A stretch of DNA of 64,000 bases from Candidatus Nanopelagicales bacterium (GTDB taxonomy: Bacteria; Actinomycetota; Actinomycetes; S36-B12; UBA5976). Position numbers and translations under genes: made by a program. The stretch lies in assembly GCA_023260395.1 (NCBI GenBank), contig JALQVI010000001.1, positions 3,692 through 67,691 of the forward strand, given 5' to 3'. Below are positions 15,330-27,314 of this stretch, in pieces. How positions within the stretch are numbered: the stretch's first letter is position 1; every line of letters starts with the position of its first letter. The notes under the pieces are model-generated. The model made no database searches. It saw nothing but the letters and a program-made list of their open reading frames with translations, and was not told the origin of the DNA.

Positions 15330-16256
15330 CTAGTGAATGTGGCGTTCCACGGCATAAACAACCGCTGGGTTCTGGGCGTCGCGGTGGAAAATGACCATCG
15401 ACCCAGGGGTCAAGGCAGGATCAAAATCGCGCTTACCAACATTGCGAACCTCGAGTTGTTCAGTCAAGGCCTGCATCACCGTCGGCATGACCGGGCGATG
15501 CGTGCACAGCAATGTGGGGCTCGCGCTGCCTGCAATTTCGGTCACGCGATTCTGGGCCCGAGTTGGATCAATCAGATGCTGCTCCTCGCTCAACGATTCT
15601 TCGAGAGTGATCGCCAAGCTGCGGGCTCCTGCGTAAGGACCCACGGTGTCGCGACAACGTCGAGAGTCCGATGAGTGCAAATTGCTAATACCAAAAGCGG
15701 CAATCGCAGGAACCAGGCCGCTTGCTTGCATGCGTCCAACTGCAGTGAGCGGACGACTCGAATCAACTTGCGCCAGCGCATCTTCGGCAACGGCCCATTC
15801 AGCGCGCTTGGTTGCTTGGGTGTGACGCAAAATAATGAGCGCGGTAGTCACAGGCGCAGCAGCTGCAGCATCGAGAACATCACGATCATGCGGGTACGTC
15901 ATCAGCTTCACAGCTTGCTTGTACGTCACCCAACGAATTTCATCGACCTCGTCATTGGCAACGAATTCACCTGACAAATATGTGGCAAACCAATAATGCG
16001 AAAACTTGTCACGGCCTTTGACCGAATACGACTGGGTTGGAAGAGGCACGCCAAGCATGATTGCAAAACCAGTTTCTTCACGCACTTCGCGAATTGCCGC
16101 AGCAATGATGTGTTCGCCTGGATCAACTTTGCCTTTCGGGAATGTCCAGTCATTGCGATACCCACGATGAATAAGTAAGTACTCACGTTCAGATGCGCCT
16201 TCGCGGGTGACAACTGCTCCGGCAGCAATGATTGCGTTATCGGGCACGGAAACCAA
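15330..16256 (-). CDS. mutT1: Nudix hydrolase fused to a histidine-phosphatase (SixA-like) domain, MutT1 type
   Basis: Nudix box is [24 protein letters not shown]-terminal half has [12 protein letters not shown] (RHG-phosphatase motif). TTG at 16256 or GTG at 16247 as start; either overlaps the ppk stop. Adjacent to ppk, as in mycobacteria and Streptomyces. Confidence 0.8.
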
Positions 16257-18393
16257 CTCGATTCAAAATGTTGTCGAGCATGCGTGGCATGGCAACATCA
16301 GCCGCAGGCTTAGCGACTGGATGGCTTCGAATCAAGAACTCTTGGTAATCCTCGAGTGGTTCGTCATTGTCATCAAGTTGTTTGCGAACCCAGTTTCCAT
16401 CCGAGTGCAAGTGCCAGGCAGATGTTGTGTCAGCGAACGCAACATCGATGGTTTCGGTAATTGCTGCGCCATCGCTATCGCCAAGACGGACCAAAGCTTC
16501 GACACGTCGATCCAGATTGCGGTGCATCATGTCAGCCGAACCAATCCAGACTTCACGCTTGCCGGCATTGCCAAATTCATACACACGACTGTGTTCAAGG
16601 AAGCGACCCAAAATGCTGCGCACTTCAATGTTTTCACTCAGCCCTTGGACCCCAGGACGCAAAGCGCAAATGCCACGAATCAACAACTGAACTTTCACGC
16701 CAGCCTGTGATGCCCGATACAGCGAATCAATGACAGTTTCATCCACGATCGCATTGCTCTTCATGCGAATGAATCCCGCGTGACCATTGCGAACGTTTTC
16801 AATTTCGCGTTCGACCTTGGCAACTAGTTCGCTGCGCATTTCCTTTGGCGCAACGATGAGACGTTGGTAATCGCCTTGCACCGAGTAACCGGACAGGTGG
16901 TTGAACAAACTCGCGACATCTTCACCAATGGCTGGGTCAGTCGTCAAAAGTCCGTAATCTTCATACGCTCTTGCGGTTTTCGGATTGTAGTTACCCGTTC
17001 CGATGTGGACGTACCGACGTAAGCGACCGCCATCGGAACGAACGACCATCGACAACTTCGCATGAGTCTTTAAACCAACAACGCCATACACAACATGGAC
17101 GCCGGCCTCTTCGAGTTTGTGTGCCCAATCAATGTTGTTCTGCTCATCGAAGCGAGCTTTAATTTCAACAACAGCGAGAACTTGTTTGCCCCATTCGGCG
17201 GCATTGATCAAAGCATCAACAATCGGCGAGTCTCCCGATGTGCGATACAAAGTCTGTTTGATTGCGAGCACGTTGGGATCTTCGGATGCTTGTTCGAGGA
17301 ACAGCTGCACACTCGTTGAAAACGAATCGTATGGATGGTGCAACACAACATCGCGATGACGCATGATGTCGATCACGTCAGGTGGAGTAGACGTTTCAAC
17401 TTCGGCAAGGGTCGCATTTGTGCGGGCCACAAATGGCGGTGACTTCAAGTCGTCGCGATTGAGTTTTGCGACTTCGTCGAGTGAACGTAAATCGAGTGGA
17501 CCAGTTAAACGGAATACCTCGTTTTCAGTAACACCTAGTTCGCTAATCAACAGATTAAGAACATAAGGATCCATCGAATTTTCAACTTCGAGTCGAACTG
17601 GTGGACCAAAACGACGACGCATCAATTCGCGTTCGAGCGCTTGCAATAAGTTTTCGGCGTCGTCTTCTTCGACATCTAGATCTTCGTTACGTGTCACACG
17701 AAATGTGTGGTTCTGAACAATCTCCATGCCAGGGAACAGCATGTCCAAGTGACCAGCGATGACGTCTTCGAGTGGCACAAATCGCTGTGACGAAACTTCG
17801 ATGAATCGCGGCAATGATGGTGGAACTTTTACGCGGGCAAAAAGTTCATTGTCGGTTCCAGGATGACGAACGACGACAGCAAGGTTCAGCGATAAACCAG
17901 AGATGTATGGGAATGGGTGCGAGGGATCAACAGCGAGGGGAGTAAGCACGGGAAACACTTGCTCTTCGAACAGTGTTGTCATCGCAGTACGTTCTTCGAC
18001 CGTCAGTTCTTCCCAACGCAGCAAGATGATTCCGTTGGCCACGAGCGCCGGCAGCACAGCCTGGTTGAAGCAATCTGAATGCTGCTTCATGGTTTCGTAG
18101 CTCTGTGCCAACACGTTGTCGTGAACTTCGCGCGGCAGCAAACCGCTTGCAGCTTTGACGGCAATACCGGTTGCAATGCGACGCTTTAATCCTGCGACGC
18201 GCACCATAAAGAATTCATCCAAGTTACTGGCAAAAATCGACAAGTACTTGACTCGTTCGAGCAGCTCAAGATTTTCATCTTGTGCCAATTCCAATACGCG
18301 CTGATTAAACGCAAGCCATGACAGCTCTCGATCAAGGAAGCGATCTGCAGGCAGGTTTGCGGCGATGTTCTCGGATGGCACATTCGTGGACAT
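16237..18393 (-). CDS. ppk: polyphosphate kinase 1
   Basis: Motifs [35 protein letters not shown] and [14 protein letters not shown]. Start chosen at MSTNVPSE (18393). The upstream ATG at 18423 would place the Pho-like motif inside the CDS. Confidence 0.93.
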
Positions 18394-18413
18394 ATCGAAA
18401 GCCTTGCATAGCG

Positions 18414-18433
18414 AGGTTAACAACGTCTAACAG
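18414..18433 (+). promoter_or_regulatory. third copy of the AGGTTAACAAC motif plus a CTAACA repeat in the ppk / S51-like divergent region
   Basis: Sequence is AGGTTAACAACGTCTAACAG. TTAACA (18417-18422) and CTAACA (18427-18432) lie 10 nt apart. The motif is 21 nt upstream of the ppk ATG, on the opposite strand to ppk, and 50 nt upstream of the ATG at 18483, in that gene's orientation. Confidence 0.4.
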
Positions 18434-18482
18434 ATTGCTTTCCCAAGATGAATAAAGGGGAATTCGGTGGGATGATGAAGCA

Positions 18483-19640
18483 ATGAGCAGGCAAATAGTT
18501 GTAATGGGTAGTGGCGAAACGAGCCCGACGATGGTCACCCCACACCAGCGGATTCTGGCGGATGTGCCTGCAACTGGCCGAATTGTGCTCGATACACCCT
18601 TTGGTTTCCAGGAGAATGCCGATGAGCTCACGACTCGGCTCGAGGATTATTTCGCCAATTCGGTGGGCACCAACACAACCGCAGTGTCTTTGCGAACGAC
18701 CGAACTTTCAGCTGGCGAAATTGCCTCAGCCGTCGCGAAAGTCCATTCGGCGAACTGGGTGTTTGCTGGACCGGGTTCCCCTTCATATGCATTGAAAGTT
18801 TGGCGCGAAACCGGAATTGCACCGCACTTTGATGAAGTGCTGCAGCGCGGCGTCATCGTGCTGGCTTCTGCCGCGGCGTTAACAGCCGGTGCCTACACAA
18901 TTCCGGTGTATGAAATTTACAAAGTCGGTCAAGATCCATTCTGGAATGAAGGCCTGAACTTACTTGGTCGTCACACTGGTTTGAATGCTGTGGTGATCCC
19001 GCACTTCGACAACAGTGAAGGTGGCACGCACGACACTCGTTTCTGTTACATGGGCGAGCGTCGATTGCGCATGCTCGAAGCGCAGTTGCCTGCTGATGTT
19101 TTCGTGCTCGGTGTTGATGAACACACAGGCGTAAGTTTTGATCTCGATACACACGTCGTTCGAGTCTTCGGTCGCGGTTCAATGACAGTGCGCAAGGGCG
19201 ACCATGTGTGGCAGGTCAAGAGTGGCGATGAAACCACAATCGAAGAAATCGCAAAGCAAGCCGATGTCGAACGCGTCATCACAGAAACAACAGAGCCGTT
19301 GTTCGTTGCGGCCGATCAAGTTGAAGAGTTACTAGAAACAGGCAATGTGTTGGCGGCTGTTGATGCGTTGCTTGAACTCGATGAAATGGATCGCGACATC
19401 GATACGCGCGCGACAGTTCACGCGCTCATCACACGGCTGGGCCAGCTCGCAGCATCACCTCGTGTTGACCTGCAATCAGTCGTAGGCCCATACATTGAGG
19501 CACTTTTACAGGCTCGTAACGCTGCTCGCTCTGGCGGTCGATGGGACGAAGCTGATGCCATTCGCGATCAACTCACGTCACTGCAAGTAACCATCAAAGA
19601 CACTGCTGATGGTTCCCAATGGGACATTCAAAGTTCCTGA
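18483..19640 (+). CDS. S51 (cyanophycinase/PepE)-like domain protein with a CysRS/MshC-like C-terminal helical tail
   Basis: 385 aa. N-terminus VVMGSGETSP, then LASAAALTAGAY at the nucleophile-elbow position, IPHFDN and VLGVDEHTGV. C-terminal part (LLETGNVLAAVDALLELDE...LLQARNAARSGGRWDEADAIRDQLTSLQVTIKDTADGSQW) resembles the C-terminus of cysteinyl-tRNA synthetase. No HIGH/KMSKS motifs. Confidence 0.55.
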   Translation: MSRQIVVMGSGETSPTMVTPHQRILADVPATGRIVLDTPFGFQENADELTTRLEDYFANSVGTNTTAVSLRTTELSAGEIASAVAKVHSANWVFAGPGSPSYALKVWRETGIAPHFDEVLQRGVIVLASAAALTAGAYTIPVYEIYKVGQDPFWNEGLNLLGRHTGLNAVVIPHFDNSEGGTHDTRFCYMGERRLRMLEAQLPADVFVLGVDEHTGVSFDLDTHVVRVFGRGSMTVRKGDHVWQVKSGDETTIEEIAKQADVERVITETTEPLFVAADQVEELLETGNVLAAVDALLELDEMDRDIDTRATVHALITRLGQLAASPRVDLQSVVGPYIEALLQARNAARSGGRWDEADAIRDQLTSLQVTIKDTADGSQWDIQSS

Positions 19641-19658
19641 TTTCAAACGCGTATAGAT

Positions 19659-20369
19659 ATGTCACATCAACCTGGTCCCATCGCACTTGTCGGTTCCGGC
19701 GAATACTTGCCGGTCATGCAAGAACTCGAAGCTGAACTCATTCGCGATCGCAATCCGATCTATGTTCAGCTGCCGACTGCAGCGGCGCCTGAAGGTGACG
19801 AGTCATTGCGTCGTTGGATTGAACTTGGCAAGAAGCAAGCAGAGCGCATTGGCGTCACTCAAGTTCCGGTTGTCGTTCGCGATAACAACGACGCAAACGA
19901 TCCACACTTCGCTGCTCTTGTCAACGATGCAGGCCTGATTTATTTATCGGGAGGTAACCCTCACTTTTTGGCGGACACATTGCGCGACTCGTTGGTGTGG
20001 AAGGCGATTCATGATGCGCGGCAGTCAGGAGCTGCGCTTGCTGGATGTTCGGCCGGTGCGATGGCGATTGCCGATCACATTCCAGCGCTTCGATTGCACT
20101 CGCCGCGAGAGTCACGGGGACTCGGTGTGCTACCTCATATAAGAGTCTTGCCACATTTCGACAAGATGTTTGGCTGGGTACCAGATTTAGCCTTGCGAAT
20201 GCTGGAAGTTCCCGATGGAGTCCACGTTGTTGGCATTGATGAAGAGACAGCGCTTGTCGGCGGCCCGTTTGAGTGGGAAGTTCGTGGCCGACAATCGGTA
20301 TGGATAGTACAAAACGGACATCGCCAGGAATTCACTTCCGGGTCAAAAATATTTCTTTCTGGAATTTAA
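19659..20369 (+). CDS. S51 peptidase-like (cyanophycinase/dipeptidase E family) protein
   Basis: 236 aa. Motifs LVGSGEYLP, YLSGGNPHFL, LAGCSAGAMA (GxSAG nucleophile motif), LPHFD and VVGIDEETALV. Confidence 0.65.
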   Translation: MSHQPGPIALVGSGEYLPVMQELEAELIRDRNPIYVQLPTAAAPEGDESLRRWIELGKKQAERIGVTQVPVVVRDNNDANDPHFAALVNDAGLIYLSGGNPHFLADTLRDSLVWKAIHDARQSGAALAGCSAGAMAIADHIPALRLHSPRESRGLGVLPHIRVLPHFDKMFGWVPDLALRMLEVPDGVHVVGIDEETALVGGPFEWEVRGRQSVWIVQNGHRQEFTSGSKIFLSGI

Positions 20370-20504
20370 GGGGCTACCCCCTCATTTTTGTCATCGCGAC
20401 AAAAATGGCGCGTTTATTGGTTCAAAGCATCACTTTTCATGAGGTTTACTAGTTAAGTCTGACTCGGGTCAGACCATTGTTTGGTTATCCAAAAGGAAAG
20501 TGTT

Positions 20505-23500
20505 GTGACGAAGTTGTCCACAAAGTTTGCCCATGTTTCAAAGCGTGCAGTTGCACTCGTTAGTTCCCTTGCGATCGCAGTAACTGGCCTGGTTGCCGGT
20601 GTTGCTGCTCCAGCAAGTGCGTCTGTCCCTGACGCGCGCCAGTTAACCGTTGGCAAGTCCTTCGGCACTACGCTCTCCAGCCCAGAGATGGCAATCTCTA
20701 ACGGTTTCGCGTATGTGCTTTCCAAGTACGGTTACAACTCGGATTATTCGGGCTACAAGCTGTACCGCAAGCCTGTGGCCGATATTAACTCGACCCCGAC
20801 AGTTATTTTGGATGCAACTAATGCGACTCTTTGCGGTGCCACTGGTTCTAACACCTTAGGCGCGACCATCAACGGCATTGATGATGTCGATCAGATGGCA
20901 GTTTCCGGCAATAATCTTTACCTACTCGAATGCTCTGGAAATGGAAGCAACATTCGTGTTGTGAAATTTGATATCTCAGACACGACTGCGACTTCCTTGA
21001 CCGGAACCGTTGTGGCTAACGCAACTTCACTTTCAGCGCGTCGCAACTCCCGTATCGCGGTTGACTCCAACCTGAACTTGTACAACATGTCGTCAAACAA
21101 CGTTTTCAAGATTGCAGTTAATGGCAGCGGCTACTACTCCGCCGCAACAACGACTCCATTGGCTTCGTTGCCAAGCTCTGCATCGATCTACAGCGGACAC
21201 ATGGATTCGCAGGGTTCGCTCGTGCTGATGTCGCAGGTGCAAGCTAGCCCTCAGACAATCGCTGCTACCTTCACATCGGTCAACACCTCAACTGGCGCGC
21301 TAACGACATTGAAGGATGTTCCAGGGACCTCCAGTTTGTACCCATACGACTTCAGTATTGATCCCGCAACGGACGATATCCTTTATATGGATACCCAGAC
21401 TGCGCCTTACCGCGTCCGTCGAATCGTCAAGGGCACTAACTCGGATTACGCCACAATCGTGGACGCGGTAAAGCCTGGTCTCAAGGTTGTACAAATCAGC
21501 CACGAGGCGATTGTTGCTGGCTCAAGTAACCAAGTAGTTTCAATTACAACCTCAGCTGATGCCCCGGTGGCACTAGGCGACACAGTTCAAAATACTTTGC
21601 CAACGGGCAGTTCGTTCTATTACACCGGTGTTGTAAGTGAAATTACCGACGCCCGAAATTTCAAAGTTAAATTAAACAATCCGCTTTACGGCTCGTTAGC
21701 GGCCGATAACACCGAGTCGCTTGCGATCTACAAAAAATTCAATAGCCTTCAAGCAATTGCCGTAAGCGCTGACGGCATTTTCACGTTGGACAATCATGCG
21801 AACATCGTGAGTGGAGCAACTACAAACCAGACGTTCTTTATGGGGACAGAAGCCGCATCTCCGTTGTTTACGATTCCAGCACAGTTCGTTACGATTCGTG
21901 CTTTCCATCGTGGCTTGACCGCAAGCTGGTCTGCGCCGGCAAACATTCCAGATTTAACGGGAATGGAAGCCCAAATTTGGGCCGGCGCTACTCAAGCTGA
22001 TGCGCTAACCGCAGCAGCAACCGGTACAAACCCAACAGTGACGTGTGTTCCGGACTCGATCACCTCTAGCCCATTCTCGTGTCCGATTTATTCGGGAGTT
22101 GAAGTAGGCAAGTTCTACGCCATCCGTGTGAAGTTGTCGACGGCAGCGACTAGCCAGCTGAGTGCAAACCCCGTAGCTCCTCCAGCTAACGCTCCTTCAA
22201 ACAATGCCAACGTGGTTCAAGCTGTCGACTCAGCAATGTCAGCCTCGCTCGCGAGCGATGCTCCGACGGGCACCGGCCCAGGTTACGCACACGTTGGCAC
22301 AAGCACAGGTTCTGCCATAACGCTCATTCGCAGTGCTGCTCCTCGCGAGTCCGCGAGCGATGGTGTGGGGGGTAAGTTTTTCGCCATCTCAACGGGAAAT
22401 AACAAACTTGCTGAGTACAAGTTGATTCACGTTAAGGGTGATGGATCAGTTGATTCAACTTTTGGTACCGCTGGCGTGCAGACAGTTGCCAATCAATTCT
22501 CAACTGGTACCCGCAACATCAAGCTAGGTTGGTACGGCGAATCAAAGTGGTTCATGCTCGATTCTTCGTACACAAATTCAGGTACAAATTATCGCTTGAC
22601 GTACCAAACCGGTGCTACAACGACGAATTCGTACACATTTACAGACGCTACGTTGCGCGCAAATTGCGCGTCGTCATTCACTCATGACAACACCACAAAT
22701 GGTCAGTGGATTAGCACTGTGACTACAGTTTCGGCAGCATCAAGTGCGCCGCTGCTCAATGTTCCATGTGGTGTGCAGTATCTGACTTCGCAGAGCGCGG
22801 CTCGACTCAGCAACTTACCGATTTTGGTGACAGTGACAGGGGATAACTCAACATCCGTGTTCTCAAAGCCAATCGGCGATCCAACAATGGCAGATGTCAT
22901 TGCGCCGAATAGCACGTATTGCTTGAACGCTGCGGGTGTTAACCCAGCCGACACCTCGGTGACATCGGGTGGAACATTGGTCACCTTGATGTACAACGGA
23001 TACACCGCTATCAATAACCAGGGTTGCATGAGTGCCAATAGCGCAGTTGGAATCGCATTCCAAATTGCAGCTGATGGAACACCAACTCGTGTTGTTACCG
23101 GTGCATCTTCGGCGTCGTACTCGGATGCGTTCGCTGCAGGTAACGGTGTCTTCTACCTAACTTCACAAAACAACATGGGCATGACTCCGACGATTACGGT
23201 TTCGCGTTTGTTAGCCAACGGAACAATTGATTCAACATTTGGCTCAGCTGGATCAATGAATGTCTCAGGTCCATCGTGTACAGGTTCACCTACCCAGATT
23301 TGGGGACTTGTTAATGGTTCACAGAGTCGTAAATACCTTGCGTTCCTATCGATTAAGTCGACGCCTTACAGCCCACAAAATCCAAATCCAAGTACATCGG
23401 CAATTCCTGCTGCGATGCTGGTTGATGCCGGACAGTCGACCGATCGTGTTGGCTCATCATTGATGGGTGTTGGCGCGTCGCTTGCGAAATACTCCAGCTC

Positions 23501-26249
23501 GGTGTTCGGTTTTGGCGCCTCAGGTGGTGGATCGGTATTCGCAACTTCAGGAATGGATTCCAGCACTGGGGCTATGTCGTTTGCGTTCTTCAAGAACGAC
23601 TCAGATGGCCTAGGTCGCATCACGTGGGATTCTTTCGCAACTGCGTTGCCAGCCGGTGACGATGCAATTGAATGTCCAGCTCTACCGTTTGTGGCTTCCA
23701 CAAACTCAATGTCTGGAAGTTACTCACGCGGATTCCGCACAGTGAAACTAACGAACGGCAAGTTCTTCCTGTTCGGCAATAGTGGAATGTCGCAATCGTC
23801 TGCTAACAAGTCAGAAATTCTTGACCTTGGAAGTAACCCAGTGGATGGAACATTCTCGTGGACATCCGCCATCCCAACTACGGGTGGATTGAACGGACTT
23901 CCGAGTGGTGCGTCACTTGCTGCACTTGCCGATAACAAGGTGCTTATTGCAGGTGGTTCGTACTACGACGCCGTCGTCACCCATACGTCAGCTAACCAGC
24001 TGGTCGCAGCAGTTTATGACGCAGTTACAAACACCTACACAGCAACCGGCGCGCTGACCAAGGCACGTTGTAATGCCAATACACAGTCTCTGTCCAATGG
24101 CAAGGTCTTGATTTTCGGTGGCGACAATTGCAACACGGGCTTGACGGTGACTTACACTGACGCAGAAATTTATGACCCAACAGCAGGAACGTTTACTGCT
24201 GTAACAGGTGATCTAGGTGCCTCATTTAGCAACATCGTGGCTCTGGGTGGTGGCAAGCACATGATTCTTGGTACGCCACTTCCTAGCGGCTTTGGTAGCG
24301 GTCAAGTTACAGGCAGCTCAGTGACAAAGATCTACGATGAGGTAACTAACTCCTTCTCGGATGGTCCAGCACTAACATCTGCTCGTGTTGCTCCTGTTGT
24401 TGTTGCACTTCCCGCCGGCAAGGTTTTCGTTGCGGGCGGTTTGCAAATGGGACCGGGATCTCCAAACTCGGCTCCATCCACGATGACTGGCGAAATCTAT
24501 ACTCCTGGTACAGGTGGCGCGATTGGAACGTTTACTGCAGTTGCAGCTACCGCACCATCATCAATCGTTGGTGCCTCGGGCGTTATCTTGCCTAGCGGTA
24601 AGGTCATGATTCTGCTCGGTAGCAGCAACATGATGTACGGCCAGGCATCCACACAAAGCATCAAATTCAATCCTGCGAACAACTCATGGGCTGCAGGCGA
24701 TGAACGTGGAACTGCAACTGCTGGTGCGATTCCATTTGCAGTCGGTACAAAGATCGTGATGCTTGGTGAGACAACTAATATGTCTCCAACTGTGCAGACA
24801 CACTTCACCGTCTACACCGAACCAGCTGAAGCACAGGCTGCAATCACGAGCACTGCACCTCGCGTTGTGAAGGGCACGACAGGCTTGACCGGCAAGGTAA
24901 CTTACACAGTTCCTACCGCGTTAAATCCTGTTGCGGGCAAGACCCAGGTTGTCTTTTCGAACGCATCTGGATCAAATGCCCTGACCACAACCGTTACATG
25001 GAACACAGCGAGCAAGGTTGTTCTATCGAACAACAACTTGTCCGTCACGGTTTCATTGCCAACAGCTGCGCAAGCTGCAAATGCTGGTGCAGTGACTGTG
25101 ACTATCAAGTCGGGTGCAACTGGCACTGACGTCATCGGAACAACAACGTTGACCTACTTGGCCACCGCCGATGTTCCAACAATTACGAGCCAAGCTGCAA
25201 CCGCCTTGAACGGCCATGCGAATGCCGCAGTTACTTCGGTGCCGCTAGCAGCAACTTCGCTACTCAGCCCGAATCAGCCAGGCTCAGGTCTGACTTACAC
25301 ATCGGCAACAGCTGCTGTATGTACTGTGAATGCAACTGGTGTTGTCACTCGCGTCTCGCGAGGCATCTGCACAATCAATGTCAAGCAGCCAAAGGGTGAA
25401 GGCAGTTCTGAAAAGACTCAAGCATTCACCTGGGAGTTTGATAAGTCAGCTCAAACGATTACGTATGCAGATGCAAATCCAACAACGTTGCCATTGACTG
25501 AAGACGGCACAACATTGGCTGCGACGGCATCATCAGGACTTGCTCTCGATTTCGAAGCAACCACAGATGACATCTGTGCCGTTGATGATGCAGGTGTTCT
25601 CACAACACTTGCGCTGGGAACCTGCACAATCACGGTTGACCAGGCTGGCGATGGAACGTATCTCGCAGCACCGCAGGTAACCAAGACAATCACAATCGCT
25701 AACCCGGTGACCCCACCCGTTGACGTACCGAACGCCCCAATTGGCGACGGTGTGTTTGGTGATACACCGGCAGGTGACACGATGGCCTCGGTGGTTTCAA
25801 CCCAGCGTTTCACGGTTGCAAAGAACATCAACTTTGGTCGCGGTTTCAAGGTTCAATACACGCCAACTGTTAAGTCAGGCAACGTTACAACCTTGACGCT
25901 TAACCCAACGATTACGTCCAACTACATGGGCCCAATCACAACGGTGTTCTCGATTCCAAAGGCTGCGTCAAAGACAACTCCAACGGGTTGGACCTTGCCA
26001 AAGAACGGTACGGCTTACACCTGCACTGTTACTTATGGTGTGACCAAGAAACTAGCTAACAACGCTCGTGCCAAGACGGTGGTGTACAAGCCTGCAAAGC
26101 CTTGTACTCTCGCAATCTCGCCGAAGGTTCCAGCTGGCACTGTAGTCACAGTGAAGAACTCATGGGATCGTCGTAATGCGAAGACTTACTTAGCTATCGC
26201 AGGCGGCATCCAAAAGCGCACAGCAACAATTACGTTGAGTGCAAACTAA
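20505..26249 (+). CDS. giant secreted multi-domain protein (propeller-like, FN3-like, delta-60-like repeats, Kelch repeats, IPT/TIG-like and Big_2-like Ig domains)
   Basis: GTG at 20505 lies 5-8 nt after AAAGGAAAG; the ORF track starts at TTG 20481. The signal peptide ends in AAPASA|SV. Kelch-like strands include NKVLIAGGS, GKVLIFGGD, GKVFVAGG and GKVMILLGS. Ig-like modules include CTVNATGVVTRVSRGICTINV and GVLTTLALGTCTITVDQAGDGTY. No LPXTG motif and no C-terminal TM segment. Confidence 0.8.
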   Translation: MTKLSTKFAHVSKRAVALVSSLAIAVTGLVAGVAAPASASVPDARQLTVGKSFGTTLSSPEMAISNGFAYVLSKYGYNSDYSGYKLYRKPVADINSTPTVILDATNATLCGATGSNTLGATINGIDDVDQMAVSGNNLYLLECSGNGSNIRVVKFDISDTTATSLTGTVVANATSLSARRNSRIAVDSNLNLYNMSSNNVFKIAVNGSGYYSAATTTPLASLPSSASIYSGHMDSQGSLVLMSQVQASPQTIAATFTSVNTSTGALTTLKDVPGTSSLYPYDFSIDPATDDILYMDTQTAPYRVRRIVKGTNSDYATIVDAVKPGLKVVQISHEAIVAGSSNQVVSITTSADAPVALGDTVQNTLPTGSSFYYTGVVSEITDARNFKVKLNNPLYGSLAADNTESLAIYKKFNSLQAIAVSADGIFTLDNHANIVSGATTNQTFFMGTEAASPLFTIPAQFVTIRAFHRGLTASWSAPANIPDLTGMEAQIWAGATQADALTAAATGTNPTVTCVPDSITSSPFSCPIYSGVEVGKFYAIRVKLSTAATSQLSANPVAPPANAPSNNANVVQAVDSAMSASLASDAPTGTGPGYAHVGTSTGSAITLIRSAAPRESASDGVGGKFFAISTGNNKLAEYKLIHVKGDGSVDSTFGTAGVQTVANQFSTGTRNIKLGWYGESKWFMLDSSYTNSGTNYRLTYQTGATTTNSYTFTDATLRANCASSFTHDNTTNGQWISTVTTVSAASSAPLLNVPCGVQYLTSQSAARLSNLPILVTVTGDNSTSVFSKPIGDPTMADVIAPNSTYCLNAAGVNPADTSVTSGGTLVTLMYNGYTAINNQGCMSANSAVGIAFQIAADGTPTRVVTGASSASYSDAFAAGNGVFYLTSQNNMGMTPTITVSRLLANGTIDSTFGSAGSMNVSGPSCTGSPTQIWGLVNGSQSRKYLAFLSIKSTPYSPQNPNPSTSAIPAAMLVDAGQSTDRVGSSLMGVGASLAKYSSSVFGFGASGGGSVFATSGMDSSTGAMSFAFFKNDSDGLGRITWDSFATALPAGDDAIECPALPFVASTNSMSGSYSRGFRTVKLTNGKFFLFGNSGMSQSSANKSEILDLGSNPVDGTFSWTSAIPTTGGLNGLPSGASLAALADNKVLIAGGSYYDAVVTHTSANQLVAAVYDAVTNTYTATGALTKARCNANTQSLSNGKVLIFGGDNCNTGLTVTYTDAEIYDPTAGTFTAVTGDLGASFSNIVALGGGKHMILGTPLPSGFGSGQVTGSSVTKIYDEVTNSFSDGPALTSARVAPVVVALPAGKVFVAGGLQMGPGSPNSAPSTMTGEIYTPGTGGAIGTFTAVAATAPSSIVGASGVILPSGKVMILLGSSNMMYGQASTQSIKFNPANNSWAAGDERGTATAGAIPFAVGTKIVMLGETTNMSPTVQTHFTVYTEPAEAQAAITSTAPRVVKGTTGLTGKVTYTVPTALNPVAGKTQVVFSNASGSNALTTTVTWNTASKVVLSNNNLSVTVSLPTAAQAANAGAVTVTIKSGATGTDVIGTTTLTYLATADVPTITSQAATALNGHANAAVTSVPLAATSLLSPNQPGSGLTYTSATAAVCTVNATGVVTRVSRGICTINVKQPKGEGSSEKTQAFTWEFDKSAQTITYADANPTTLPLTEDGTTLAATASSGLALDFEATTDDICAVDDAGVLTTLALGTCTITVDQAGDGTYLAAPQVTKTITIANPVTPPVDVPNAPIGDGVFGDTPAGDTMASVVSTQRFTVAKNINFGRGFKVQYTPTVKSGNVTTLTLNPTITSNYMGPITTVFSIPKAASKTTPTGWTLPKNGTAYTCTVTYGVTKKLANNARAKTVVYKPAKPCTLAISPKVPAGTVVTVKNSWDRRNAKTYLAIAGGIQKRTATITLSAN

Positions 26250-26393: not shown

Positions 26394-27314
26394 TTAAGCG
26401 CGAGTAAACATGACGTCGGTGTCCCAATGCATGAAACCGATTGATTCGTATAAGTGTTTTGCCGAATCATTGTCGGCATCGACGTAAAGCATCGCAGCGC
26501 CTAAGCCTTCGTCGCGCAAGTATTCCAAACCTTTTAGGCTTAGGGCCTTGGATAAGCCTGTACCACGTTCGGATGGCGCAACGCCTAGAACATAGATTTC
26601 GCCGATTTCAGGATGATCATGTCCACCGCCACGACGTCCACCGTGAATCTTGGTCCAGTGGAATCCAACGAGCTTGTCGCCCTTGCACGCAAGTAAGAAT
26701 CCGGATGGATCAAACCAGCCCTCGGACATGCGCACATCTAAATCGTTACGAGAGAGCTGACCTTGTTCAGGATGTTCCGCAAACACTTCAGCGTTGAGAG
26801 CAAGCCAGGCTTCTTCATCTTGGCCAGGAACAAAACTTCGAATTGTGATTCCCGTAGGCACGTCGTATTTCGGCATCGCAGAAAAAAGTGAGCGGCGCAT
26901 TTGCCACAGTTCGCGCGTCTTTTTGAACCCTAAGTTGGAAGCCAATGCGTAAGCCATTGCAAGTTCGCCGTGTGCCCACAGGCGCAAGCGATCATCGCCT
27001 GCGCGTTCCGTCGCAGCATGAACCAGAGCGCGACCAACTCCCATGCGACGGTGGCGAGGATGAACAACGAGTTCAACAACGGGACCAGCAACTTCGTCCG
27101 TTTGATCCAGATGCAAATAACCAATCACGATGCCATCGGTAGAGCGAGCGACAATGTGTTCGTCATGTTCATCGCCACCGTGATTTAGATGAATCAATAC
27201 GTGTTCAGACAGTGGAGCAAGGTCATCTTGAACTGTTGCAGACTGGATTAATTCTTTGATGCGCGCGATGTCATTATCGTCAAGATGCGCAAGCGCCGAA
27301 ACGGTAAAGGACAT
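26394..27314 (-). CDS. mshD: mycothiol synthase (tandem GNAT domains)
   Basis: 306 aa with two GNAT folds. Conserved stretches VVHPRHRRMGVGRAL, RLWAHGELAMAYALASNLGF, RELWQMRRSL and YVLGVAPSERGTGLSKAL. Confidence 0.88.
   Translation of the reverse strand: MSFTVSALAHLDDNDIARIKELIQSATVQDDLAPLSEHVLIHLNHGGDEHDEHIVARSTDGIVIGYLHLDQTDEVAGPVVELVVHPRHRRMGVGRALVHAATERAGDDRLRLWAHGELAMAYALASNLGFKKTRELWQMRRSLFSAMPKYDVPTGITIRSFVPGQDEEAWLALNAEVFAEHPEQGQLSRNDLDVRMSEGWFDPSGFLLACKGDKLVGFHWTKIHGGRRGGGHDHPEIGEIYVLGVAPSERGTGLSKALSLKGLEYLRDEGLGAAMLYVDADNDSAKHLYESIGFMHWDTDVMFTRA

Follow-up and report, generated by a model that had tools for sequence, protein, structure and literature searches.

What does a serine hydrolase do with the anticodon-binding end of a tRNA synthetase? 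The question is raised by two adjacent genes in a 64,000-nucleotide stretch of DNA from Candidatus Nanopelagicales bacterium (assembly GCA_023260395.1, contig JALQVI010000001.1), referred to below as the window. The first gene, open reading frame (ORF) A, encodes a hydrolase domain of the S51 (cyanophycinase/PepE) type followed by a tail related to cysteinyl-tRNA synthetase (CysRS). The second, ORF B, starts after a gap of 18 nt on the same strand and encodes an S51 hydrolase alone (Table 1). Public databases name members of the ORF A family only as 'hypothetical protein', 'cyanophycinase-like exopeptidase' or 'peptidase E'. Full-text searches of the literature returned no characterised protein that combines an S51 domain with a CysRS tail, in agreement with the original prediction, a description of this locus drafted from its letters and translations. 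The uncharacterised fusion is both real and ancient.

Judged by its sequence, the last ~105-140 residues of ORF A are a homologue of the helical bundle and C-terminal anticodon-binding domain of CysRS. Pfam CysS_C (PF23493) matches amino acids 338-380 at 39.1 bits (cutoff 23), and the NCBIfam cysS models cover residues 279-381 through their last ~75-110 positions only, such as positions 381-488 of NF011108. CysRS 3TQO was matched by phmmer (E 6e-6), and the family profile of ORF A matched four solved CysRS structures (8QHP, 3TQO, 6UJD and 1LI5; E from 1.9e-12 to 5e-11) in alignments of up to ~140 residues that span residues 321-460 of the E. coli enzyme (1LI5) and 362-486 of 8QHP. Residues ~260-385 of ORF A are homologous to ~321-461 of E. 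coli CysRS, and the predicted models give the tail the same helix-helix-hairpin end. Neither a HIGH or KMSK(S) motif, nor a tRNA-synt_1e Pfam match, nor a synthetase catalytic core was found in ORF A. Unlike CysRS, the protein lacks the Rossmann catalytic domain, the CP domain and the stem-contact domain, and beside its anticodon module a hydrolase takes the place of the synthetase core. These matches bear out the CysRS-like tail without class-I catalytic motifs that the original prediction had described.

The tail had also been called MshC-like, and this did not hold. MshC, a CysRS paralogue that acts as the mycothiol cysteine ligase, retains the catalytic core and lacks the C-terminal anticodon domain. 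Like ORF A, it is derived from CysRS and found in Actinomycetota, and mshD lies 6 kb from ORF A in the window. However, ORF A retains only the part that MshC has lost, and PDB sequence searches at E<=1 matched CysRS chains alone and no MshC chain. The suggested link to mycothiol is positional only; the gene order ppk-A-mshD is confined to the clade of the window, defined here by ORF A identities of at least 70%.

The retained part of CysRS includes the pocket for the first anticodon base. In the complex of E. coli CysRS with tRNA-Cys (1U0B), G34 is ringed by Arg423, Arg427, Trp432, Ala435, Asp436, Arg439 and Asp451 (Table S2 and text of PMC12684709), and Arg427, Trp432, Asp436 and Arg439 were mutated when the anticodon recognition of CysRS was re-targeted (PMC13449415). 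Conservation of the ORF A counterparts was read from two alignments, A1 with 41 close (Planktophila-like) relatives and A2 with 48 diverse homologues at 36-57% identity to the query. In A2, R345, D358, R361 and D373 are each present in 48/48 sequences and R349 in 47/48, while position 354 is aromatic in 47/48 and position 357 is Ala, Ser or Gly in 48/48. Residues L341, R345, R349, D358, R361, L364 and D373 are identical in ORF A and the four solved CysRS enzymes. The conservation holds down to 36% identity and spans Actinomycetota, Chloroflexota and one Rokubacteria metagenome-assembled genome (MAG). The alignments show strong purifying selection on both the hydrolase domain and the tail over a very wide phylogenetic span.

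The N-terminal domain of ORF A has, in its predicted structure, the S51 fold. The AlphaFold (AF2) model has a predicted local distance difference test score (pLDDT) of mostly 80-96 across residues 1-260. Foldseek aligned it to 20 S51 chains of the PDB at E<=4e-6, with template-modelling (TM) scores on the target of 0.65-0.78. The best match was 6NQC (E 2.5e-14), followed by PepE (8e-12) and cyanophycinase (1e-9), and 6NQC was also the sole match of the ORF A family profile among S51 structures (E 5.5e-12). This 'cyanophycinase-like exopeptidase' from an acI-B1 actinobacterium, on which a literature search found no paper, shares the N-terminal GSGE motif with ORF A and ORF B. In ORF A, GSGE stands at residue 9, SAAA (within LASAAALTAG) at 129, PHFD at 173 and GVDEHT at 210. 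A direct comparison of ORF A with Pfam Peptidase_S51 (PF03575) gave 19.7 bits, just under the cutoff of 23.9, and a precomputed PF03575 match is present in several of its homologues. ORF A shares 25% identity with ORF B across 265 aa (BLASTP, E 1e-10). On the Foldseek, profile and BLASTP matches, the two belong to one 'GSGE' sub-branch of S51, as distant paralogues.

The co-oriented S51-like paralogues of the original prediction are in this way confirmed by coordinates, motifs, Pfam for ORF B, Foldseek for ORF A and BLASTP. Its interpretation holds in part. Profile searches placed ORF B in S51 and the ORF A tail in CysS_C above their cutoffs, and left the hydrolase domain of ORF A below its own. 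Structure comparison recovered S51 enzymes, cyanophycinase included, for the N-terminal domain of ORF A and no CysRS for the model of its tail.

ORF A had further been taken for a degenerate, non-catalytic partner of ORF B in a heteromer. A dead S51 pseudo-enzyme of this kind is very improbable. The glycines flanking the serine of the GxSxG elbow are substituted in ORF A (LASAAA), and pairwise BLAST sets S129 opposite C130 of ORF B and A130 opposite the nucleophile S131, a one-residue shift that makes the elbow look degenerate. However, the alignment of the family profile with 6NQC pairs 'aSAAaltlG' with 'CSAGAMVLS' and places S129 on the nucleophile. In the model, strand 124-128 gives way to helix 129-134 at S129, and the flanking glycines alone have been substituted. 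S129, H174 and E213 are invariant in A2 and align with the triad of 6NQC, so that ORF A is apparently catalytically competent, with the Ser-His-Glu triad intact. This fold and triad layout are shared by ORF A and ORF B with PepE and the cyanophycinases (CphB/CphE). Mean column identity in A1 is 65%, above what would be expected of a scaffold. The pseudo-enzyme idea was rejected on the profile alignment with 6NQC, against which the BLAST register proves to be off by one.

The heteromer draws on the adjacency of the two genes, which overlap by 4 nt at stop and start in two relatives (L086 and L088), and on retention of the tandem in the Nanopelagicales-like clade where the ORF A lineages are only 44-48% identical. 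Across the loci compared, however, the tandem occurs in 12/89, all Nanopelagicales-like, and in the remaining 77 ORF B is not beside ORF A. Among the twelve are distant Nanopelagicales-like loci with an ORF A 44-62% identical to the query (L004, L007, L009, L010, L019 and L026). L001, L002/L003, L005, L006 and the Ca. Planktophila-type loci lack the tandem, as do all loci among the 89 that come from Acidimicrobiia, Chloroflexota and other actinomycetes. An obligate A-B pair was rejected on this synteny.

ORF A also departs from the characterised S51 enzymes. It is ~22% identical to 6NQC, to which it adds the CysRS tail, the family-specific invariant motifs GSGE(T)SPTM, DTPFGFQEN, GPGSP, PVYEIYK and HDTRxCY, and an insert of 18 residues after the triad histidine (residues 177-194; 19011-19064). 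The insert has no counterpart in ORF B or 6NQC. Its residues N177, G180, H183, D184, T185, R186, C188, Y189, G191 and R194 are near-invariant across phyla, and residues 179-185 are of low confidence in the model. A lid, a loop for the substrate and a metal site are candidate roles for it, and together with the family-specific motifs it points to a substrate unlike that of the characterised S51 enzymes. Against the NCBIfam cyanophycinase model TIGR02069, ORF A scores 20.7 bits, far below the cutoff of 126.6, and the PepE model NF003642 (cutoff 156) was not among its listed matches.

The fusion is widespread. A word-index search returned at least 8000 homologues; the best 120 among the matches listed are 60-97% identical to ORF A, and all 120 carry a precomputed PF23493 match. 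A search of cluster representatives at 50% identity gave 1481 matches at E<=1e-3 and 432 clusters at E<=1e-30. Full-length relatives were found down to ~38% identity and are mostly 370-460 aa long, a spread that arises because the linker varies. Nearly all full-length homologues keep the tail despite a linker of 55-131 aa, which corresponds to residues 263-329 of ORF A and is modelled with a pLDDT below 50. In species-representative genomes, relatives occupy at least 598 loci in at least 598 species. Carriers include Nanopelagicales (Ca. Planktophila among them), Acidimicrobiia including the cultured Ferrithrix, Micromonosporaceae including Dactylosporangium, Kineosporia, Angustibacter, Pseudonocardiales, Mycobacteriales, Chloroflexia, Limnocylindrales, Anaerolineaceae and the Rokubacteria MAG. 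Ca. Planktophila-type genomes, which are described as streamlined (PMC12817590), retain ORF A at 60% identity or more. The fusion is shared with related genomes, and ORF A and ORF B are not co-conserved outside the Nanopelagicales-like clade.

With an apparently intact triad at one end and a G34 pocket at the other, ORF A may tentatively be read as an S51-fold hydrolase or acyl-transferase that docks onto tRNA via the anticodon. Docking on tRNA is favoured by the retained G34-pocket residues, since drift at these positions would be expected in a domain taken over for a role without RNA. It is also favoured by the homology of the tail, the invariant triad, the tail kept in nearly all full-length homologues and the gene kept in the streamlined Ca. 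Planktophila-type genomes. The Ser-His-Glu domain would act as a hydrolase, or as an acyl-transferase through an acyl-enzyme intermediate, and the complete CysRS-derived module, helical bundle and alpha/beta domain together, would bind the anticodon loop. The bound tRNA would at least carry G34, and its simplest candidate is tRNA-Cys (GCA). Binding would set the S51 domain on an acyl, aminoacyl or peptidyl group of that tRNA, with deacylation, or use of the group as an acyl donor, as the presumed outcome. There are precedents for such re-use of a synthetase piece to address an activity to tRNA in YbaK/ProX and AlaX (trans-editing deacylases), GluQRS/YadB and the HisRS-like sensor of GCN2. Those modules are editing or catalytic-core domains, and we know of none that joins CysRS's anticodon-binding domain to an S51 hydrolase. 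There is a realistic chance, though below even, that the family forms an unrecognised tRNA-directed class brought to tRNA-Cys or another G34 tRNA by the CysRS module, either a new trans-acting deacylase that polices the groups esterified to that tRNA or an aminoacyl-tRNA-dependent transferase. In Acidimicrobiia and Chloroflexota, the transferase would feed a small-molecule pathway with two enzymes encoded beside ORF A, an alpha/beta hydrolase and a Gfo/Idh/MocA oxidoreductase.

Several observations weigh against docking on tRNA. To our knowledge, no S51 enzyme acts on a tRNA ester. The positions compared are those around G34, one of the three bases of GCA (G34, C35, A36), and as they also belong to the core signature of the CysS_C fold, their conservation could be partly structural. 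The tail is modelled at low confidence, and when modelled in isolation (pLDDT 70, predicted TM score 0.38) it gave TPR-like noise in Foldseek and no CysRS structure, so that its homology rests on sequence and profile evidence and not on a fold match. It is more acidic than that of CysRS (isoelectric point 4.4, against 4.7 for the whole of ORF A) and lacks the basic C-terminal RRK of the E. coli enzyme. In 6/41 of the A1 relatives (P0067, P0110 and four others), the triad acid E213 is replaced by Gly (GVDGHTG); either these relatives can do without the acid, with D212 invariant in A1, or the chemistry is altered in this sub-lineage.

The gene neighbourhood adds to these points. Outside the Nanopelagicales-like clade, a gene for an alpha/beta-fold serine hydrolase lies directly upstream of ORF A on the same strand in 57/80 reference loci, from Acidimicrobiia, Chloroflexota, Micromonosporaceae, Kineosporia and the Rokubacteria MAG. 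The enzyme has ~285-300 aa, the motifs HGLxSN, GQSWGG (the elbow) and HDxHAQ, and matches to Pfam Abhydrolase_1/6 and Hydrolase_4, without an NCBIfam equivalog. None of the Nanopelagicales-like loci carries it, and these alone have a B-type S51 gene after ORF A; the two may represent a partner swap. A gene for a Gfo/Idh/MocA oxidoreductase, with weak sub-cutoff similarity to xylose and inositol dehydrogenases, stands 5' of the hydrolase gene in 21/47 assessable loci by clustering (~12 by a stricter search), on the same strand and often overlapping it, in Acidimicrobiia and some other lineages. The resulting three-gene cluster of oxidoreductase, hydrolase and ORF A is found mainly in Acidimicrobiia, and no homologue of either neighbour was found within the window. 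These neighbours look like small-molecule metabolism and not translation. Furthermore, no tRNA-Cys gene was found near ORF A in 85 loci or in the window, where no tRNA gene of any kind was detected.

Much of this evidence would also suit an S51 exopeptidase or dipeptidase of the ordinary cytoplasmic kind, with a tail no longer able to bind RNA and re-used for structure, oligomerisation or the docking of a partner such as the upstream alpha/beta hydrolase. The S51 fold with its intact triad, the acidic tail with its TPR-like noise in Foldseek, the metabolic neighbours without translation genes, and the missing linkage to tRNA-Cys all agree with it. Such a peptidase is nonetheless somewhat unlikely. 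Seven G34-pocket residues that are invariant or nearly so across phyla are hard to explain without the original ligand, and the tail persists in the clade of the window, where the alpha/beta hydrolase is absent. ORF A also lies far from the equivalog cutoffs of PepE and cyanophycinase, and its invariant motifs are foreign to the characterised S51 enzymes.

The same anatomy and the same conserved anticodon pocket could also belong to a tRNA-switched peptidase. As the HisRS-like domain does in GCN2, the tail would sense charged or uncharged tRNA-Cys and couple the release of amino acids from peptides to the supply of cysteine. The flexible, variable linker would leave the tail and the hydrolase domain free to shift against each other. 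This regulatory alternative is improbable, as precedent is lacking for both S51 enzymes and the anticodon domain of CysRS, an anticodon-binding domain alone is unable to distinguish charged from uncharged tRNA, and the gene context contains no pointer to cysteine metabolism outside the clade of the window. Docking of an S51-fold hydrolase or acyl-transferase on tRNA is kept as the tentative reading of ORF A.

A separate pattern of tRNA genes was seen downstream of ORF A. In 17 loci, tRNA-Glu(UUC) begins 15-100 nt 3' of the ORF A stop on the same strand, and in 10 of these it is followed by tRNA-Asp(GUC) and tRNA-Phe(GAA). The pattern is seen in Acidimicrobiia-like genomes alone, where it may simply reflect synteny. 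G34 is common to tRNA-Asp, tRNA-Phe and tRNA-Cys.

Table 1. Features of the ORF A-ORF B locus in the window, and examples of neighbouring genes at other loci (L numbers; positions within each locus).
Feature	Location	Strand	Size, basis or detail
ORF A, fusion of S51-fold hydrolase domain and CysRS-derived anticodon-binding module	18483..19640	+	385 aa; ORF list, Pfam, NCBIfam
S51 / class-I-glutamine-amidotransferase-like hydrolase domain (ORF A residues 1-262)	18483..19268	+	AF2, Foldseek, family profile
Predicted nucleophile codon, S129 (ASAAA elbow)	18867..18869	+	aligns with Ser of 6NQC GCSAGAM; 48/48 A2, 41/41 A1
Predicted triad histidine codon, H174 (PHFD)	19002..19004	+	aligns with 6NQC PHF; 48/48 A2, 41/41 A1
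Predicted triad acid codon, E213 (GVDEHT)	19119..19121	+	aligns with Glu of 6NQC IDE; 48/48 A2
Variable linker and helical region, CysRS helical-bundle homologue (ORF A residues 263-329)	19269..19469	+	profile, NCBIfam
CysS_C anticodon-binding domain, two helices and beta-hairpin (ORF A residues 330-385)	19470..19637	+	Pfam PF23493
G34-pocket counterparts R345, R349, W354, A357, D358, R361, D373	19515..19601	+	mapped via phmmer CysRS alignment
ORF B, stand-alone S51 hydrolase, 6NQC homologue (triad S131/H166/E195)	19659..20369	+	236 aa; phmmer, Pfam
Terminator-like hairpin then T-run, directly 3' of ORF B stop	20369..20392 (also given as 20369-20382)	+	consensus scan, pattern match only
ppk	16237..18423	-	NCBIfam, 1154 bits
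Kelch/Big-like putative surface protein	20481..26249		1922 aa
mshD	26394..27314	-	TIGR03448, 337 bits (cutoff 163)
Alpha/beta hydrolase, examples among L011-L083	L054 5093-5965; L027 5009-5989; L053 5159-5998		
Gfo/Idh/MocA oxidoreductase, examples	L054 4029-4970; L066 4053-5069; L082 4001-4936; others		
tRNA genes downstream of ORF A, examples	L011 7239-7312; L012 2813-3063; L014 7340-7580; L047 7305-7543; L054 7294-7367; L066 7312-7614; 11 more		

ORF B is an ordinary, clade-specific, stand-alone S51 hydrolase of the 6NQC type. Its motifs are GSGE at residue 12, GCSAGAMA with S131, PHFD at 165 and GIDEET at 192, with no HIGH or KMSK motif, and the canonical serine motif noted in the original prediction is confirmed by the alignment of S131 with 6NQC. 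Pfam Peptidase_S51 matches it at 56 bits (cutoff 23.9). The phmmer match to 6NQC (E 1.5e-61 across 230 aa) makes the two close homologues, and S131, H166 and E195 all align. Its scores are far under the equivalog cutoffs of both TIGR02069 (55.2 against 126.6) and the PepE model NF003642 (27.2 against 156), and by this sequence criterion it is not a bona fide cyanophycinase. No obvious signal peptide was seen by eye in ORF A or ORF B, the first strand lying within 10 residues of the N-terminus.

In many database homologues of ORF A, the call begins at an internal Met (MGSGETS...) and gives 378 aa. Since residues 4-8 (QIVVM) form the first beta-strand of the AF2 model, the longer start MSRQIVVMGSGE (18483-18506) is probably correct, and the 378-aa calls truncated.

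A consensus scan detected no terminator-like hairpin between ORF A and ORF B, and the single hairpin after ORF B fits an A-B bicistron, with co-transcription of the two genes predicted in the Nanopelagicales-like clade only. No sigma-70-like promoter was found in 18200..20700, and no Rfam family matched 18000..20800 at E<=1, so that no RNA leader or riboswitch is indicated. As originally predicted, the pair lies between ppk and a gene for a giant surface protein, with mshD ~6 kb away, and all three genes were confirmed. In the clade of the window, the order is mutT1-ppk, divergent ORF A followed by ORF B, and convergent mshD-glnR-thioredoxin. The slot between ORF B and mshD is variable: it holds the Kelch/Big-like gene in the window and a gene for a 769-aa protein without a Pfam match in an 88%-identical relative (L084 10961-13270), and it is empty in relatives at 70-76% identity (compare L086 and L088). 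It looks like a hypervariable insertion site for surface proteins.

The two genes bear on a trait ascribed to freshwater actinobacteria of the acI lineage. Genome papers attribute to this lineage a 'cyanophycinase' with which it would feed on the cyanophycin of cyanobacteria (PMC3526179, PMC5574706). Since ORF A and ORF B (COG4242-type) fail the cyanophycinase model and look cytoplasmic, this niche trait merits re-examination, and if they are the genes meant, it is not established.

As address labels go, a synthetase's anticodon-binding module is very specific. An intact G34-reading module on another enzyme, in two phyla and at least 598 species, offers a bench-testable hypothesis for a large family without a function. 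If the tRNA reading is true, a new fold would join the small group of enzymes acting on charged tRNA.

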